Both the position numbers and the translations under genes were made by a program. Shown piece by piece: positions 36,961-47,060 of a DNA stretch of 64,000 nt (positions within the stretch are counted from its first letter, which is position 1; each line of letters opens with the position of its first letter). A model generated the notes under the pieces. The model had not been told where the DNA came from. It did no database searches and saw nothing but the letters and a program-made list of their open reading frames with translations. Source of the stretch: Patellaria atrata CBS 101060 (taxonomy: Eukaryota); contig MU006089.1 in assembly GCA_010093705.1 (NCBI GenBank), positions 1,552,455 through 1,616,454 of the forward strand, given 5' to 3'.

Positions 36961-37032
36961 GGGCGTTTAGCTCAGTGGTAGAGCGCCCGCTTTGCATGCG
37001 GGAGGTCGAGGGTTCGATCCCCTCATCGTCCA
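36961..37032 (+). tRNA. tRNA-Ala (anticodon UGC), intronless
   Basis: Full cloverleaf: GGGCGTT/ATCGTCC acceptor with G3:U70, D stem GCTC/GAGC, anticodon arm CCCGC-TT-TGC-AT-GCGGG, T arm GAGGG-TTCGATC-CCCTC, discriminator A, then T-runs. Confidence 0.96.
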
Positions 37033-37314: not shown

Positions 37315-38636
37315 TCATGATCTCCCAGAGACCTTGTAGGTCGAGTCAATATCTCCCCACTTGATCTGGCTGAAGGTGACGGAGGTATCAGGTTGAGACT
37401 CTTTGATAACCGCTGGGTCACCCTCAGTGTCAGTGCAGGGACCAGCCTCGCCGCTATCGAGCCACTTCATGAACCCACCCTCATCCCACCAGACGCTGAA
37501 AGCAAGAACCATACCCCGGGACAAGGCAGCGCCCATACCGGCAGTAGCACCGAGATCCATGTAGCGTCTGGAGCCGGTAAGCTCGCAGAAGTTATCCTCT
37601 AGGTAGTCTTGCTTCGGCAGACCTTCGACGTTGATCATAGCGTTTTGGATGAGCTTTCCATCCTGGATATAGAGACGTTTGATGGCGACGAGCTTGCCGT
37701 TCTTTTGGGGGAACTGGGTTACGACAGTGAAGGGCTTTTTGGTGTCGACTTTAAGACCATCCCGGCCGTAGTACTGCGTCTGGTTGACCCTGTAAGGGTT
37801 GTAGCCGCAGCCGTTCTTGTCGCAGACACCTTCGAATGCGCACTCCTCGCCGGTGCACTCGTAAAGGCCAGTTTGGTTGCAAGGATGGGGTGCAAGATGA
37901 GTTGACCTGGAGTTGGCCTCCCAGATATCCATCTCATTGCAGCATGAACCTTTACCTTCAATGTTTCCCTGTGCTGTATTAGCGAGTCGGTTCACAGTTT
38001 AGGATCCATCTAGTAACTTACAACACCGTTAATGAAGGGAGTAGTGAAGCATTGAGCATCACAGTATCCAGTTCCGTAGTAAGCACCACCCTTGTTTAAG
38101 GAGCTCTTAGCACCATCTGCAGCCATCTCTGAGAGGTACAGAGCGCCGTTCATGCCGCAAGGTAACTTGGAAGCGTCGACATCAAAGGTGAGTTCCTTGC
38201 CTGTCAACTTGAGCATTTCATACTTCTGCTCATTCGGAGCTAGAAGGTAGACGCGAGGGCTAACGACTGAGCCATCCTCTTTGATTTGCCGAAGATAGAG
38301 GCTGCTTCCTGAAGTCTTGACTCCGTATTGGGTATAATCCATAATACCATCCATGATACAGTTCTCCGCGCATGACGCTTCATCAGGGCAAACAGTAGCA
38401 TTAGGCGCCTGTCCCCAGCTTCCGCAACCAAGACTAGGATTGTCTTTTTGGTATACGGGATGAGCGAGTGAGTCTAAGACAATCGCATTATTCTGCTTGA
38501 CACAACCACCTCTCTTTGTGCACTTCCATGTGTCGATCTTAGGATGTACCTCGCGGGTTGGGCCAGGCTTTTGGGCCGTGGCAAACCCGAAAAGAAGGGA
38601 AGTGAGAAAGACAAGAGCTGGAGCCATTGTGGTCAT
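37315..38636 (-). CDS. GH7 endoglucanase (EGI/Cel7B-like), no CBM; intron 38021-37969
   Basis: Signal peptide ending at Gln, 'VSPRVYLL', 'KLPCGMNGALYLSEM', 'YGTGYCDAQC', catalytic 'CCNEMDIWEAN', 'WLDSG'. Short loops suggest an endo-type enzyme. Start is 38636 or 38627. Confidence 0.94.
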
Positions 38637-40568
38637 TCTATGTTAACTGGGACAAACCGAGCTCATGTAAACAGTAGAGCGCGATAGCCCTTTTTATAAG
38701 AGCCATTTTCACCCTGGTGTTTACTGTGACGGTCTGTCGGTACTGCGGTTCATCATTAACCAACTCAATTGAGATTGTGCCCAGAAAGCAGCACTATAGG
38801 ATTCTTTCTAGAAGGTCAAAATGGAAGAAATCAAGATTGAAACTGCCGCAGAGCCATGCCATGCCGGCTCCGCGGGCCTGTCGTAGGCTTTCAATTGGCG
38901 CTGACCTGAGAGAAATAGATGAAAGAACAGACATTTCCCGGAATTCAGATAGGATGAGCGTAGTTGAAGTCGGTAACCAGATCGTTTTTATATTAATTTG
39001 CGGGCATGTATACATTGTATGGGGGCGGGGGAGACAAGGGTAACAGACGGCAAGACCTTGATATAATTTGTGGAGGAGGCGTTAACGCCTTATACTGGTC
39101 TGTGAGCGGCTGAATTGTCCCAGTTTGGGGTTTAAAATCCACTTGATCTCATGAAATACTACTTATACATTCGCCGATGTAGGAATTAATAGACTTCTCT
39201 CCGTCTTAGCTCGACGGAAATGGGATATTTCAACCAGAAATCGCTTCGGTTAATTCTGAAGGGGACTGGCTGACAGCTCAATTATCCCAGTTCAGCAGGT
39301 GGCCGTTAGAATGGCGCCAAACCAGGTACAAACCTAAAGCTGGGCTCTAAACCGAGTTCAACCCATCTTCCTGCAGACAACAGAGCGGAACAGAGTGTCA
39401 TATGACGCCTTTGAGGCTCCTGGCCATTTATTAAAATGGATACAAGCATGCGTATTCACCATCCAGTTCTTAGGAGAACTAGATGGTCGATTCGAAGGCC
39501 TGCGGTATAGGAGAACTGGTGCGAAAAGGAGGAGATAATCCAAGCGTAGTATATTTACATTTTTCATTCTTTTCGGTAACTCATTATTGGAATGGGTTAT
39601 AGATGTGAGGAGGGGATTGTGATCCTTTGAGAGTAGGACTGGAGATGTATAGCAACTTATTCCACCTCCAGTCTTCATTCTGAACACATATTTCTTCTTT
39701 ACATAAGCAAGAGCTAGTCGTTACAAGAGAAGGGTTTCTCCTTTGGACGATAATATTTTCTCGTAGTGTAGGTAGCTATCTACATCACTCCTCTCCAAGT
39801 GACTTTCCAGGAATGTCCCCTTATCCGTCAAAGTTAGCATTTCCCTATACTCTTACAGAACAACTACTGCGAACGCAGTATGTCAAACCGAGTTTCCTTT
39901 GCCTTTCCGGTCAAATGATCCAGTATGTACGGTTGTGCATCATCCATACGTTTTCCGCTTTCCTCGACACTGGCACTCATTCCCCTAAATCTTTGCTGGG
40001 AAATCCTTTCCTAGTTCCGCGACATCCAGTTTTTCTCGAGAAGTCCAATCTTAGACAGGCCAATTATCTTTTTTCCCTTTGACGATTGGAAGGACCTGGA
40101 AGCATTGGCAGATGTCCAATTCCCTGTACGTCTCAGTAGAGTATTCAGGTTACTCTTAATGTTCTTGATCGTTTCGAATAATGTATTGAGTGATACTCAT
40201 TTGAGTATAAGCGCTCTCCTGCTCTTTTTCTAAGTACAACACTCCAATATTGGAGAGGTAGTTCTGTACTCGTATCGACTTATTCAACCTGTGAGAACTG
40301 GTATTCCTTTGTAATTCTGTCCTGGATGGAAGTATCTAAGAACATTGAGGAGTTACGCGCTGGTCAAAGAATGCAATGCCGGTCATAGGATATGCAGGGC
40401 CACGTTAGATGTTCTTCCATTAGTTATATGGATCTCCCGCAAGTTTGTTAACGGGATTTGATGAAGAAATATCAAGAGCACGGACATACTAGGTCACGGT
40501 ACGAAGTCACAAACTGATCTTATTCCTACGCCCTATTATTTTGCAAGTCCTCCCCCACTTTCAATTAT

Positions 40569-40791
40569 GGTATAATAGCCTAGTGGTAGTATGCGGTACT
40601 TGCTCAAGTCAACCTCCTGCGTTACAACTGGTACGCGGGTTCAACCCCCGGTTGTGGCTGCTTAAGGACACTCACTTGAGATTCAGAAGGAAATAGAATC
40701 TTCTACTATCATACCATTCAATTGCCACAGCAAATCAGTTCGCCTGGTTTCCGGGATCCCTGAGGAGGATTTTCTTTTGTAATTTTTTTTT
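40569..40791 (+). ncRNA. Unassigned Pol III-type structured RNA locus (tRNA-like or SRP-like head, A and B boxes, oligo-T end)
   Basis: A box TAGCCTAGTGG 40576-40586; B box GGTTCAACCCC 40638-40648 within a T-arm-like hairpin; several nested complementary segments to 40768; T-runs at 40770-40791. Confidence 0.55.
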
Positions 40792-41194
40792 AATCGTTTA
40801 TTTATCTCCTCGACGTATCTCGGTATGATAATAGGATATTATTCCGGGTTTTTTTTATAGCGGTCGTTCTCCTGCTCTATTACTTCCTTGAACAGATGCG
40901 ATTGAAATGTGACCTGATGCTGAATCTGCATGCCGTTGTTTGTTAGGCGGCCACTCTGGTCTTGATCATTCACGAAAAGCTCTCGCGAGCTTGGTATAAA
41001 ATATAACTTACCCATCCACCCCACGAATCCAATAAATCTTCGTTTCCGTCATTCGTTTCCTCATCCACTCCAAAACCTGGAGCTTGGTACCTTTGGCGCA
41101 TTTTGCCGTTGCCTTGTCGACTTCTCCTGTAAAGTCTCAAGTCTTGGAAATTAGCAGTACACCAATATCATCCACAATCTTAGAACCACCGACC

Positions 41195-42284
41195 ATGGCA
41201 TCATCCCTACCTTCTACCTGCGCCGCTTGTGGCGTGCCAGCGACGACTGTTTGCGCTGGCTGCAAAAACGCACCAGAATCTGTCGTCACGGTCTATTGTA
41301 CAAAGGATTGTCAGACCAAGCATTGGAAAGATCACAAATGGAGCTGCAAGAAACTGCAACTACGGAAACAACTCTACCGAACGGCTTTATTTGTTCAACA
41401 ACTCTGGTACATCTATCGCAGCCGTACGTACGACTACAACATCAGTCGCGTGACGACCAATGATGGCATCCTCACCCTACATGGCGGCCCTCATCATTCC
41501 GATAGGCTACCTAATAGAATATATCGCCTTCCATCAAGTCTCGAACCAGGCAGCGATGAGTGGAAGAGCGTGTTGTGTGCACATATGTGTCAGGACGCGG
41601 TTGTTGACACACAAGTGTTGATCACAAAATACATCAAAGGTAAATTGGTCAAACCTTCCACAACAAGCGCTATAATCTCATGGAAAAATCATAGGATTAT
41701 GCAACTATCTTCGGGAAGTATACTTCACACCCAAGAATCCGATGGTGCTTGAGCATGTTCGTTATGACGGCACTCCGCTCCAGAATAGGGGCCAATACAG
41801 TCATTGTGTGTTCCAGGTTGCGCTTGCCAATGGAGAAAGATATGCCATCGATATAAGCGGTGCTCAATATGGCATATACACTCCATTCGCAACTTGGGAA
41901 AGGTACGAAGCACAATACATCAAAGAAACTACACATATCTATAACATTGGACACACGGCAATGTTTTTGGCGAATCCTATATCGATATTTGGCTATCGTG
42001 CTATTGGGAATGCAATGATTATTATCCTGGAGAGGAGTCTTATCAGGGTGGAGACAATCAGGAGTAGCACAATTGAGGAGCTCTTGAAGGCTGCGGATAT
42101 AAAGTGGAACGCCGAGCTTCCTGTATTCCTGGATCATATTGACGCACTATTGCATGGATATCTCAAACGAGCAAGGCGGATTGCTGAAGTGAGTCGTAAT
42201 GCTCCAGTGAGGAAAGAGATATTTCTGCAGGCTGGTGAGAAAATCCTTGCTACTAAATGGGTGGAGGTAGAGAAATGGTCATGA
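41195..42284 (+). CDS. MYND zinc-finger protein with an uncharacterised, possibly transglutaminase-like, C-terminal domain; intron 41640-41694
   Basis: 'CAAC...CAGC...YCTKDCQTKHWKDHKWSC'. The intron joins in frame to 'HCVFQVALANGERYAIDISGAQYG'. Confidence 0.85.
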
Positions 42285-42764
42285 GTGAGTTGTATTTGAA
42301 ATTAGGACAAGAACATCTCACATGGAGAACTGGACAGAAGGAAATATCAAGCTCAGGAAAACTCTTGTATAGTACATACCTAACATATCACCGGTTGTAA
42401 CAACATGATTACTCAAGCTCGCTCATAGCCAACTTAAAATACAAACTTAATGGAATTAGGAAAATGTGTGACATATGACTGTATCTCGCACAAAGGAGAA
42501 TATACCGCTTGATATACCATTATGGTATTACGGAATTGAGCTTTTGATATAATCGTTGTCGCTCATAACGATGAAGTGGTATCATACATACTTTGGATTC
42601 TCCTCTCAGCTACTTCTCACCTCAGGGGGTTCAGATATAGCTTCCGTAAAGGGGCCGCATGCTAAGCCCGATATTACCCCCAAAGAAATGGCGGTATCTA
42701 GCGAAGTTTGGCCGACGCGTACAAAAGTTTACAAGTAAACCTCTGTAGTTAGAATTGTCCAAAG

Positions 42765-43950
42765 ATGAGATTACGTTCGCCTTCAGCATGGCATACAATT
42801 GCTTTAGCTATTGGGTTTCTCTTTGTACAAGCAGCACACGCTTCCCTAGGTGATCGTCTACCCGACTTCAAAGATTGTGTCAAGGTACGCCGGTCGAAGA
42901 CTAGGGGAATCAGCTCATAACCCGCTCCCATCATGATATATACGTCTTGCTTACAATTGCATATAGGTATGCAAAGAGGTGAATTGCGATGTTGAGAAAC
43001 CGACTTATATTCGTACGTCCACATTTCCCCTCTACCCCACCTGATCCTATCCTTATTCCTACCTTCCAGCCCTCCGACACCGTCTCCTCCTGTGGGATTG
43101 TCCCTCCGAATGCGATTACACGTGCCAACACATCGTCACTGACACCCGCCTTGCGCGGGACCCACCCTACCTCCAACCGGTGCTCCAATTCCACGGAAAA
43201 TGGCCCTTCCACCGTTTCCTGGGCATGCAGGAGCCCTTTTCCGTCATATTCAGCCTGCTGAACTACCTCGCACACGACCACGGCATGGAGCGTCTTCGCA
43301 GTGAGGTCCCGGCCAGCTACCCGCTGCGCGTGTATTACCTGCTGTTCGGGTACATCGGGCGCGTCTCCTGGCTCTTCAGCATCCTGTTCCACACGCGCGA
43401 CTTCGCCCTCACTGAAAAGCTGGACTACTTCGCCGCCGGCGCCAGCGTGCTCTACCAGCTCTACTACACCCCGATCCGCGTCTTCCGCCTTGACCGCCGC
43501 ACCCCCGGGAAGCAGAACATCCTGCGCGCTTGGACCGGCCTTTGCGTCCTCCTCTACACCCTGCACGTGGGCTACCTCTCCCTGTGGTCCTGGGACTACA
43601 CGTATAACATGGCGGCCAACGTGGCCGTGGGCGCCGTATCGAACGTCCTCTGGAGCTGGTTTAGCTGGCAGCACTACCAGAGGCTCAAGCGGCCGTGGGC
43701 CGCGTGGCCCGGCTTCATCGTCGCCTGGATCATCATGGCGATGAGTCTGGAGCTGCTGGATTTCGCGCCCTGGCGCGGTTTCATCGACGCCCACAGTCTG
43801 TGGCATCTGGGCACCGTCTTGCCGACCGTGTTGTGGTATAAGTGAGTTCCCTGCGTAACCATTCCTTTGGGCGAGGGCTAAGTTAAGGGATACAGCTTTC
43901 TGATCAGAGACGCGAAGGAGGACCTGCAGGGTATGAGACTCAAGGCCTAG
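42765..43950 (+). CDS. PER1: Per1/PGAP3 GPI-remodelling phospholipase A2; 4 exons, introns 42885-42966, 43013-43069, 43842-43895
   Basis: 'ASLGDRLPDFKDC', 'LLWDCPSECDYTCQ', 'QFHGKWPF', 'FHTRD', 'EKLDYF', 'LELLDFAP', 'IDAHSLWH'. Confidence 0.96.
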
Positions 43951-44486
43951 CATGGAAGGATTTTTCCTCCCTCCCACACGTACCGTCACTTACACATCTG
44001 TACAGTGTCGCAGAAGAAACAGTTTTAGTCTGTTCTACCCCGCTGGGTTCTCCGTTTTTGCGTGTACGCCTTTGGCTCAGGGCGTTTTGGTGTGGGGTTA
44101 CAGAATGCATATTTGACTTTTGTGGGGGAAAGATGGTTGCAGGATGTATAGAGGAATGCAATTTTTTGTGTGAATAGATAGTGGCGCCATTGAGCGTACA
44201 AGAACTCGTAGTTGATAGTACTTGGATCGTTGAGATCACGGTGCTCCCGTACATATTAGGGTCATCACAGGGACATTTGCAGGCATTCTAAGTTCGTTCA
44301 CACGCAGATATGAAAAGAAGAGGACAATGTTCATTTGTTATTGTTTCTATATGTACACTACGCCATCCATCAATCAAACGTTGAAAGAGTCCCTTTACGG
44401 ACAAAATATCCGAATACTGTACGCCAAACCCCGGCCATGGATATATGATGACGTGAAACCCAAAATGTTACCAATCTAAAAGCGAA

Positions 44487-46631
44487 TCATAACTCGTAGT
44501 TCTCTCCTTCCCACTCTTTACACCGCCCGAACCAACTTCTCCTAGCGCATGTTGGCTCCGTTGGTGTAGAAGTAGGCAATACTGCAGTAGTAGGTGAGGG
44601 ATCGACGCAAATCAAGCCAAACCATTCTTTCGATCTACACGAATGCGATGTAGATGAAGGAATCTCGCTGGTAGGCGTCGGAGAAGCCGTTGGTTCTGGT
44701 GTCGTAGTGGGATCTTTACATCCAAACCAACCCGGGTGCTCACACGAGGTCGAGGTGCTTGACTGTGAGCCTGTGGACGTGGGTTCTGATGTTGTAGTAA
44801 TCGTAGGAGCAGGAGCTGCAGTATCCGATGATACACTTGTGGTTATAGTGGTACTCTCATCCTTACAGCCAAACCATCCCGGCGTTTTGCAGGTGGAAGT
44901 TGAAGTACTTGTGCTCTCCGTTGTAGAACCATCAGTCGTCGTCGATTCATCCAGACATCCCCACCAGCCAGGCGTTTTGCATGTTGCTGTTCTTGTCCGT
45001 GTACTATAAGTCGAACTGCTAGTCATTGTAGTTTCGGAACTGTTACTCTCGAAGTATTTCCAAAGGTAACAGTCCGTGCAATTGGATTGAACATTACATT
45101 TGGGGACGTCATCGTACTTTTCTATAACATCGTGGATAACGCTCCAAATACGATGTGTTCCTGCACCAACACGCCAACCAAGGTCTTCTACCGTGTCGTA
45201 TACACAGGATGCACCATTGTGGCACACACTCTGCATCGCATATCCACCGATGGTGCATACAGAACTGGCATAGTTACAAGACCCCATGTAGATCGGATCA
45301 GCGGTATGGCCGAAGTGATTTCCTCCGGTCATGTAACGGGCCTGGTGTGCTCCAATATGATATCCTGGAGGTGTAGGAAGTCCAAGACGTGAAGCGGGCA
45401 TAGCAGCCGGGACGGCTTCAAAAGTAATAACCGGCAGCCCGTAAGTTAACCCAAGAAGACTGCTCACCGCACCTCCCAAGGAATGGCCGGATAGCCAAAT
45501 ATCAGCGTCCGGATAGTATGCTGACACATTCCGGTATAATTCTTGTGCCGCATAATAATAACGGTTCTTCTCCCTTAAGGCTTTAACTAGGCACGTGGAA
45601 TTGCAAGTATACGCTGAAGTTTGACAGTCGCAGACTTGCCTCCATAAGTACTGCCCACCTTGGCCACAACAGCAGCTGAAGAAAAGGTTATCATTCAGCT
45701 TGTCGTTGGTGGTCGTTCCTGAACCGTCAAAGACAGCTGGAGCTTATTGATTAGTTAGTATAAAAATACCCTGCGACCACAAAGTGAAGTCAAACATACA
45801 AGTGCCTTTTAACCCAATAACTATCGTTCTATTAGTCGTATCAGCGAAGATATGACCCCTCAGTCCGTCATTTGACCATCCGAAATCTTCTGTATAATTG
45901 AATCCACTACCAACCTAAGGCCGGTGTTAGCAAGTGTGTATCAAGTATTACATCGAGGACCATACATCTTCCCATTCTCCTGTCCCATGTTCTTCTATAT
46001 AAGCATTTGCTGCCATACGTGCAAAACTCACGACCGTCTCTTTGTCCGTCACATTGGGTCCATCGATCTTGTCTATCGTCCAGTCGGACGCGGAGAGACT
46101 GACGGGTCTCCCATGCATTCGTCCGAACTCTAAGATACCGTCGATATAGTCATGACTTCGATCGGCAAGTCTTTCTATACTGACGGTGTGTGACTTAACG
46201 CGGAGGGGCGGGGCAAGCTCCTTCGTGGAAAAAGAGGTATCCCAATCATCTACTATGTAGTACGGTGTATCTCTCGGGATATCTAACCTTCGGTGTAGAT
46301 GTGGGTATTTGTATGTCCCATGATGGAAGATATGTTGGAGTCTCTGATATGTATGTATTAGCCACATGGGATATTTCTTGAAGGCATCTCTACATACGAA
46401 CTCAAGGATCTGGGAGCCTTCATCGGACGACTTCTCGTGATCGCGTCCTGACCCCGGAAGAGGAATACCAGGCGGCAAGTAAGGTATATCTCGGAAGTCC
46501 TCCGGAATAAGAGCAAGAGGTGCTATAGCGGAGGCCGGGTGGAGAATATATGATGATAGCGCAACGGACAAGAGCACCGTGGCGGTTACTCTGCCTGCAG
46601 AGCGACAAATGCGGGGATGAATCGGAAGCAT
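44487..46631 (-). CDS. ATG15: Autophagy-related vacuolar lipase Atg15; 4 exons, introns 46397-46344, 45965-45915, 45799-45743
   Basis: N-terminal hydrophobic anchor, 'LQHIFHHG', '[13 protein letters not shown]', '[13 protein letters not shown]', lipase 'GHSLG', '[12 protein letters not shown]', Ser/Thr-rich tail. Confidence 0.95.
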
Positions 46632-47060
46632 ATCGCGACCTTTGTTATGAGAATCTCAGAATCATGGACAAGACGTGCGTAACACCATTCAAAGTGAGAA
46701 GGAAGAGGTTGAGAGATGGTTGAAAGTATGATATGTTGAATGTTATGAATACATTAGGTTTAGCGATGATGACGATTGGGGTCACAAGCTAACCACAAGG
46801 CAACCAGAAGCATCGAGATCAGCCACTTTACGAGTCGCCTTAAGAAGAAGCCTCAAAGAGCTCAAATCCCCTATGACACCCCAAACGGTTCGTGTCATCG
46901 GGGAACCTTAGGGTAATAGTTCCGTTATCGATAAAGCTGTTCTTGGCTGTTTTGCGTACAGCTCCGTGTGTGAGATTATCACCGTTCATTCTACAGTAAA
47001 GAACGCCAGATTCTCAAATGAAACTCTGTTTGTGTATATGTTCATCTAATCTCCTTCGAA

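Follow-up and report, generated by a model that had tools for sequence, protein, structure and literature searches.

The element at about 40556-40792 on the plus strand of the window (the whole 64-kb stretch of DNA analysed here) belongs to a set of at least seven copies that are diverged in sequence, dispersed through this genome and set in unrelated flanks. It is about 240 bp in size and consists of a tRNA-related head with an A box and a B box, a body unrelated to tRNA and a T-rich tail. We consider it probable that these copies make up a low-copy, tRNA-derived, T-tailed family of SINE-like repeats (or of SINE-like retro-pseudogenes) in a filamentous, Dothideomycete-like ascomycete. This reading draws on what was observed for the family, namely the boxes, the multi-copy dispersal, the unique flanks, the decay of sister copies and a T-rich tail common to the window copy and one further copy.

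Copy number and layout of the repeat unit

We searched public sequencing runs with positions 40480-40880 and found two runs of one sample (X1 and X2) that contain all 38 of the 38 sampled words. Both are labelled RNA by guess and are probably DNA, with contigs up to 67 kb long and an even cover of intergenic DNA; since they come from one sample, we count them as a single observation. Their contigs were aligned over 38000-44000, and the sister-copy figures given here and below are those among the matches listed. In X1, each flank is covered by one contig at flat depth (311 over 38201-40411 and 338 over 40814-43024), and the two bins over the element reach 694 and 918. In X2, depth over the element is 1004 and 1381, compared with 466 and 458 in the flanks. 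The bin 40814-41014 is at single-contig depth.

The contig graph breaks within the element in both runs, where one contig stops at 40622 and the next begins at 40594. The graph branches at this exact-match core (40594-40622), which is identical in at least one other copy. At least six other contigs, each with about the depth of a single copy, carry matches to 40574-40680. Identity is roughly 85-95%, and 3-8 letters are changed per 46-75 nt. The sister contigs have lengths of 14.6, 29.5, 5.3 and 0.4 kb in X1, and of 1.6 and 1.3 kb in X2. Because nothing else matches the flanks of the window copy at 85% identity or above and the sisters lie in different large contigs, the copies are not segmental duplications. 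The original prediction had made a new RNA class depend on a single copy, and the six or more others found here speak against it; the tRNA-derived SINE, which it had named among several options, fits about seven dispersed and diverged copies. Within the rest of the 64-kb window, blastn at word size 7 detected no further copy, the best stray match having an E value of 0.77.

The tRNA-related head occupies 40569-40659. It is a defective cloverleaf, with GGTATAA and TTGTGGC as the strands of its acceptor stem, a poor D stem and about 19 extra nucleotides between the D and T arms. The A box TAGCCTAGTGG (40576-40586) matches TRGCNNAGTGG, and the B box GGTTCAACCCC (40638-40648), which is also the T loop, matches GGTTCRANNCC; the T arm has a canonical 7-nt loop. 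An anticodon-arm-like hairpin, CAAC-CTCCTGC-GTTA, lies at 40610-40624, and its loop has U33 and reads CCU.

Both boxes proposed in the original prediction stood up to scans of the 64-kb window, in which each consensus occurs elsewhere only in a tRNA-Ala gene. TRGCNNAGTGG has two matches on both strands compared with 0.66 expected, and GGTTCRANNCC has two compared with 1.17 expected. The positive control for these scans was the tRNA-Ala(TGC) gene itself at 36961-37032 (+), which is a true gene by ARAGORN, scores 68.8 bits in Rfam and is followed by short T runs. In the element, the A box and the B box lie on one strand, in the correct order and with a spacing of 51 nt. Simple arithmetic from the box expectations puts the chance of such an ordered pair on the order of 1e-4 per window. 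The pair exceeds chance, and the tRNA-like head is real.

The tRNA-unrelated body (40660-40769) diverges among the copies more than the head does. It is followed by the T-rich tail (40770-40791), which opens with the first T4 run 3' of the head at 40770, has a second T4 at 40775 and closes with T9 at 40783-40791, the sole run of nine or more Ts on the plus strand of the window. This tail is probably a Pol III terminator. Among the pieces listed, one sister reaches 40756 and then continues as ...CTTCTTTTGCATTTTTTT, in agreement with the window's TTTTCTTTTGTAATTTTTTTTT, which suggests that the T-rich tail belongs to the repeated unit.

At the opposite end, the 5' leader (40556-40568), with TTTCAA at 40559-40564, was compared with the loose ends of sister contigs and is likely to be the Pol III start region. 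Two sister contigs have AATTTCAAG in common at a similar distance 5' of the A-box region, and the window copy reads CTTTCAA at 40558-40564, which suggests that the repeat unit starts 5' of 40569. The ATG directly 5' of the head is present in another sister contig as well (both alignments were made by eye). The unit, which lies within about 40556-40792 and has no terminal inverted repeat, fits a SINE in its size; a piece of some longer element, or a MITE, would fit less well.

Two other kinds of element were tried and rejected. A MITE was set aside on the lack of terminal inverted repeats at the unit ends; the best inverted pair from the head, 40569-82 with 40832-45, is 86% over 14 nt, and its right arm lies outside the repeated part. 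An LTR primer-binding site at TGGTATAATAG was dismissed on the finding that sister copies differ there.

For the SINE-like family we propose the following mechanism. In a source copy, TFIIIC would bind the A box and the B box inside the element, and Pol III would start a few bases 5' of the head, cross the tRNA-unrelated body and stop in the T-rich tail, yielding an RNA of about 210-230 nt. This RNA would then be recopied into scattered genomic sites, presumably by a LINE reverse transcriptase. The window copy has partly lost its acceptor and anticodon-like pairing through transition-type changes, several of them in CpA/TpG contexts. Pol III transcription, retroposition and any RIP-like origin of the transitions are steps that we infer. 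Transcription of the window copy may still be possible, since its A and B boxes keep to the consensus and a strong T run has been retained.

It is also conceivable, but in our judgement unlikely, that tRNA-like pseudogenes or another short repeat spread as DNA, through ectopic recombination, small duplications or as unrecognised non-SINE pieces, and never as a self-propagating Pol III retroposon; the boxes would then be leftovers of a founding tRNA gene. We found no flanking direct repeat of at least 9 nt around the unit, whose family ends are only roughly placed so that short or decayed target-site duplications could escape; nor was a poly(A) or simple-repeat tail or a partner LINE seen. These negative results agree with spread as DNA, as does the very low copy number of about seven. 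Furthermore, the similarity among copies seems to run a few bases 5' of the plausible start site (TTTC before CAA), which counts against RNA copying because a copy made from RNA would lack these bases unless transcription starts further upstream. The tail, too, holds a full terminator-like T run, as if DNA had been copied. Against this stand the unique flanks of the window copy and the placement of its sisters on different large contigs, together with a unit confined to the span that a Pol III transcript would cover, about 240 bp from promoter head to terminator. There is also a precedent for tRNA SINEs with a T tail in wheat and Aegilops (PMC4223381).

Divergence and decay among sister copies

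Beyond the core, the sister copies are known from 30-letter loose ends, which we aligned by eye. At 40624, six contigs per run read G, and A is found in the window's own contig only. With a G here, a fourth pair would form in a CAAC/GTTG stem that encloses the canonical 7-nt loop CTCCTGC, and the change in the window copy is of the TpG->TpA type. One sister reads GCCCCAA at the 5' end where the window copy has GGTATAA. By eye, GCCCCAA pairs at six of seven positions with the window's 3' acceptor strand TTGTGGC, whereas the window's GGTATAA forms four Watson-Crick pairs, two G-U pairs and one G-G with that strand. These sequence differences suggest that the family ancestor was closer to a tRNA than the window copy is.

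Compared with the GCCCCAA sister, the window copy shows eight differences over about 29 positions and one indel. Six of the differences are transitions; four change a sister C to a window T, two or three of these in CpA. The pattern hints at RIP-like or deamination decay of the window copy, and we take it as a hint only, because the RIP indices of the whole element are unremarkable: TpA/ApT is 1.06 (86th percentile of same-sized windows) and (CpA+TpG)/(ApC+GpT) is 1.11 (45th percentile). The head alone has a RIP-like look, with a TpA/ApT of 3.0, but its 91 nt are too few to judge. A remark in the original prediction about TG->TA changes thus holds in part: several differences from the sisters are of the CpA->TpA or TpG->TpA type when aligned by eye, while the indices over the whole element give it no backing.

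The sisters themselves carry damage in and around the B box. The invariant A of this box is changed (40644 A>T) in two sister contigs in X1 and in three in X2, and one sister contig has 40647 C>A. In the T stem, two sister contigs have 40636 C>A, with no compensating change among the differences listed, and the B-box region is unalignable in two loose ends. One sister copy (one contig per run) has a joint from 40657 to 40726 and is missing the 68-nt body segment 40658-40725; most of the distal domain is gone with it. Most sister pieces end by about 40680, and the loose ends past 40680 and 40683 need indels or diverge. The 5' region is rather different in two sister copies, indicating a heterogeneous family. 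Judging from the B-box substitutions, the 68-nt deletion and the body indels, most copies are decaying.

These comparisons bear on a further possibility, that the copies constitute a small functional Pol III gene family for an undescribed RNA of about 210 nt with a tRNA-like head, the window copy being active and the others pseudogenes. The window copy does have perfect A and B boxes at a workable 51-nt spacing, and 3' of it come the window's two longest plus-strand T runs, first T9 and about 60 nt further on T8. In addition, no known Rfam family accounts for the element, and no difference is listed among the aligned sister contigs in the 28-nt core at 40596-40623. This invariance, however, may only reflect the seeding or cutting of contigs at common words. 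We regard a functional family as very unlikely, given that the folding is no better than that of shuffled sequences (see below), that the differences between copies break pairs and boxes and do not compensate, and that the window copy itself has a derived A at 40624 and a damaged acceptor stem. Nor did exact-motif metagenome scans, a weak test, reveal a homologue outside this genome. A decaying SINE-like family remains our preferred reading of the copies.

Folding and searches for known RNAs

The original prediction described an end-to-end helix built from nested complementary segments, and every motif it listed is present at the position it gave. CCTCCT at 40613 is complementary to AGGAGG at 40763, GCG at 40619 to CGC at 40741, AACTGGT at 40626 to ATCAGTT at 40734 (one G-T) and GTTGTGGC at 40651 to GCCACAGC at 40724 (one T-G). 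The arms of two hairpins, CTTAAG at 40661 with CTTGAG at 40675 and GATTC at 40680 with GAATC at 40696, are likewise in place. A competing helix of TGGTATAATAG at 40568 with CTATCATACCA at 40706 has one mismatch, and its 3' arm is absent from the sister copy that carries the 68-nt deletion.

As a significant fold, the end-to-end helix was not upheld. Folding of 40568-40775 gave a z-score of -1.39, with 18 of 200 shuffles as good, and folding of 40569-40791 gave -1.58, with 21 of 300 as good. The z-scores of the tRNA-like head and the 3' extension taken separately were -0.26 and -1.11. A lower value of -2.64 (3 of 300 shuffles as good) was obtained for 40613-40768, an interval picked post hoc to begin and end on the outermost helix of the original prediction and one of six tried. 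The nested helix model itself reaches only -29.9 kcal/mol versus -61.5 kcal/mol for the minimum free energy (MFE) structure, which pairs differently and makes no use of it. The 200-nt stretch free of T4 is ordinary as well, because 46% of the gaps between runs of four or more Ts in the window are at least 200 nt long. The structured-RNA reading of the element fails: it finds no support, as the fold is no better than shuffles and no Rfam family matches. Nor is the proposal of a new structured class of Pol III RNA supported, for the fold is ordinary, the distal domain is deleted in a sister and the element is not single-copy.

We then consider the element as a tRNA gene. ARAGORN at default settings, with or without introns, called no tRNA at the element, and the Rfam tRNA model RF00005 was absent there even at E<=10, whereas the same tools gave the nearby tRNA-Ala 68.8 bits. 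Both results agree with the defective cloverleaf of the original prediction. At -ps80 with introns allowed, ARAGORN places a 'tRNA-Arg(cct)' on the head, with a 13-nt intron at the odd position 32/33; this call is no evidence of a tRNA, because the relaxed scores also give two spurious tRNAs within 600 nt. A true tRNA gene was rejected, as neither ARAGORN at default nor RF00005 yields a cloverleaf. Intron-containing readings (Leu-CAA and Arg-CCU) were tried by hand and also rejected, neither producing a canonical set of arms.

Searches for other RNA families gave a similar picture. No Rfam family matches the element at gathering thresholds or at E<=1. At E<=10, over 40400-40900, there are chance-level matches only, to Afu_335 (minus strand), TCL6_2 and RAGATH-25, and none to an SRP, RNase P/MRP or plus-strand snoRNA family. 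At 15.4 bits (E 3.4), the Afu_335 match on the opposite strand falls short of the gathering score, which is 50, and leaves the C box unaligned. Two scans of metagenome contigs for exact core motifs returned 0 matches each; they required exact words and are a weak test, and no close relatives were to be expected because the nearest protein relative is just 78% identical.

In the leader-promoter Pol III genes RPR1 and SNR52 of budding yeast and in plant tRNA-snoRNA dicistrons, a tRNA-like segment with A and B boxes also lies 5' of another small RNA, and a T run forms the end. Those genes are conserved and present once, and the RNA downstream is in each case one of a known family. In contrast, the downstream part of the present element matches no family, is its least conserved portion and is partly deleted in one copy.

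The other readings of the original prediction take the element as a single locus: a new structured RNA, an SRP RNA in shortened form or a snoRNA precursor with a tRNA leader. Both the nested complementary segments, present at their places, and CTGA near the 3' end are in their favour. We nevertheless give them almost no credence. The element is multi-copy, no SRP, snoRNA or tRNA family appears at E<=1, the model is far from the MFE (-29.9 versus -61.5 kcal/mol) at a z-score of about -1.5, and the distal 68 nt are missing in one sister while CTGA is altered in another. For the SRP derivative in particular, no SRP family was found in 40400-40900 even at E<=10. The snoRNA precursor fares no better: the one sister copy extending as far as 40760 does not keep CTGA there, and the sole snoRNA match is the one of 15.4 bits on the opposite strand.

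Related repeats and genomic neighbourhood

Several SINEs of plant-associated filamentous ascomycetes (Mg-SINE, Foxy, Nrs1 and the Blumeria SINEs) have tRNA-derived heads of Pol III type. They are longer, at about 0.5-1.3 kb, and more numerous, and they have A-rich 3' ends. To our knowledge, SINEs have rarely been catalogued in Dothideomycetes. Our literature search found no paper on a SINE in this fungus or in Dothideomycetes, and we do not claim from this that there is none.

A closer likeness is offered by AfuSINE2 of Aspergillus fumigatus, described by Kanhayuwa & Coutts 2016 (PMC5063351) as low-copy (1-5) tRNA-related SINEs of 140-493 bp whose heads lack a cloverleaf fold. The two resemble each other in their ascomycete host, in low copy number (1-5 there, about 7 here) and in size (140-493 bp there, about 240 bp here). 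Both also have a tRNA-related 5' region with A and B boxes but no cloverleaf, followed by an unrelated body (PMC5063351). Unlike AfuSINE2, the present element shows no likeness, in a comparison by eye only, to the eight AfuSINE2 sequences printed in PMC5063351. Its A and B boxes are perfect, whereas those of AfuSINE2 are degenerate. Target-site duplications, reported there for AfuSINE2, were not found here, and the 3' end of AfuSINE2-1a is given as (ACT)n, while that of our element consists of T runs (PMC5063351).

The 3' end finds a better parallel in plants. The Au SINE of wheat and Aegilops is presented in PMC4223381 as a tRNA SINE that has both an A box and a B box and closes with a short poly(T) at its 3' end. 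The element likewise has the two boxes, and it ends in T runs, not in poly(A). It departs from Au in that Au is a plant family with thousands of highly conserved copies, compared with about seven diverged ones here, and in that the T tail is interrupted here (T4, T4, T9).

In all, this is a repeat of a known kind that had gone unannotated. The candidate "new RNA class" is thereby removed, its tRNA-like head and T run being explained by a familiar short dispersed repeat. SINE tails rich in T rather than A are documented only for plants in the literature consulted (PMC4223381), and a low-copy family with such a tail and with Pol III boxes still intact would supply a case from fungi. Such copies can mislead the annotation of tRNAs and non-coding RNAs, and they are usable as insertion markers.

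The element is intergenic and lies about 400 nt 5' of the first ATG of a MYND gene on the same strand. This setting allows a more far-reaching version of the SINE-like reading, which we rate as quite unlikely: the window copy would be a live source gene of an undescribed T-tailed tRNA-SINE family in a Dothideomycete, from which Pol III would make an RNA about 215 nt long. Its boxes, bound by TFIIIC at 400 bp 5' of the MYND-finger start codon, would also act on that gene, for example as a boundary or through promoter interference.

Between the element and this gene, a T8 run lies at 40849-40856 (+), 60 nt 3' of the T9, and the two are the only runs of eight or more Ts on the plus strand of the window. 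The T8 run is outside the repeated part and may be a back-up Pol III terminator or mere AT-rich intergenic DNA. A 27-nt stretch 5' of it resembles the element's own tail at 70%. Close by, GGTATGATAATAGG at 40822-40840 (+) is similar to GGTATAATAG at the element's 5' end and is complementary to 40697-40715 (19 nt, 84%). Three related words (40822-40840, 40697-40715 and the 5' GGTATAATAG) thus fall inside 270 nt, possibly by chance.

Among the neighbouring genes, a two-exon GH7 endoglucanase occupies 37315-38642 (-), with Pfam E values of 1e-68 and 1e-78. The short interruption between its two ORF pieces, at about 37999-38009, is presumably an intron. Among its solved relatives, the best matches carry the name endoglucanase I (E 5e-96). 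The MYND zinc-finger ORF at 41036-41752 (+) has a Pfam E value of 1e-7 and its first ATG at about 41195; a possible later exon is the ORF in an overlapping frame at 41676-42284 (+), to which no Pfam family matches. Further on, a piece of a Per1-family gene (post-GPI attachment factor) at 43045-43845 (+) has one NCBI match at 98% identity, a protein named from a Dothideomycete, and the next best match is at 78%, which indicates that this protein collection holds no close sequenced relative. The long ORF pieces at 44487-46655 (-) contain GHSLGG, a serine motif of lipase type, and have a repetitive tail rich in Ser, Thr and Pro in which 'CKTPGWFGC'-like units recur.
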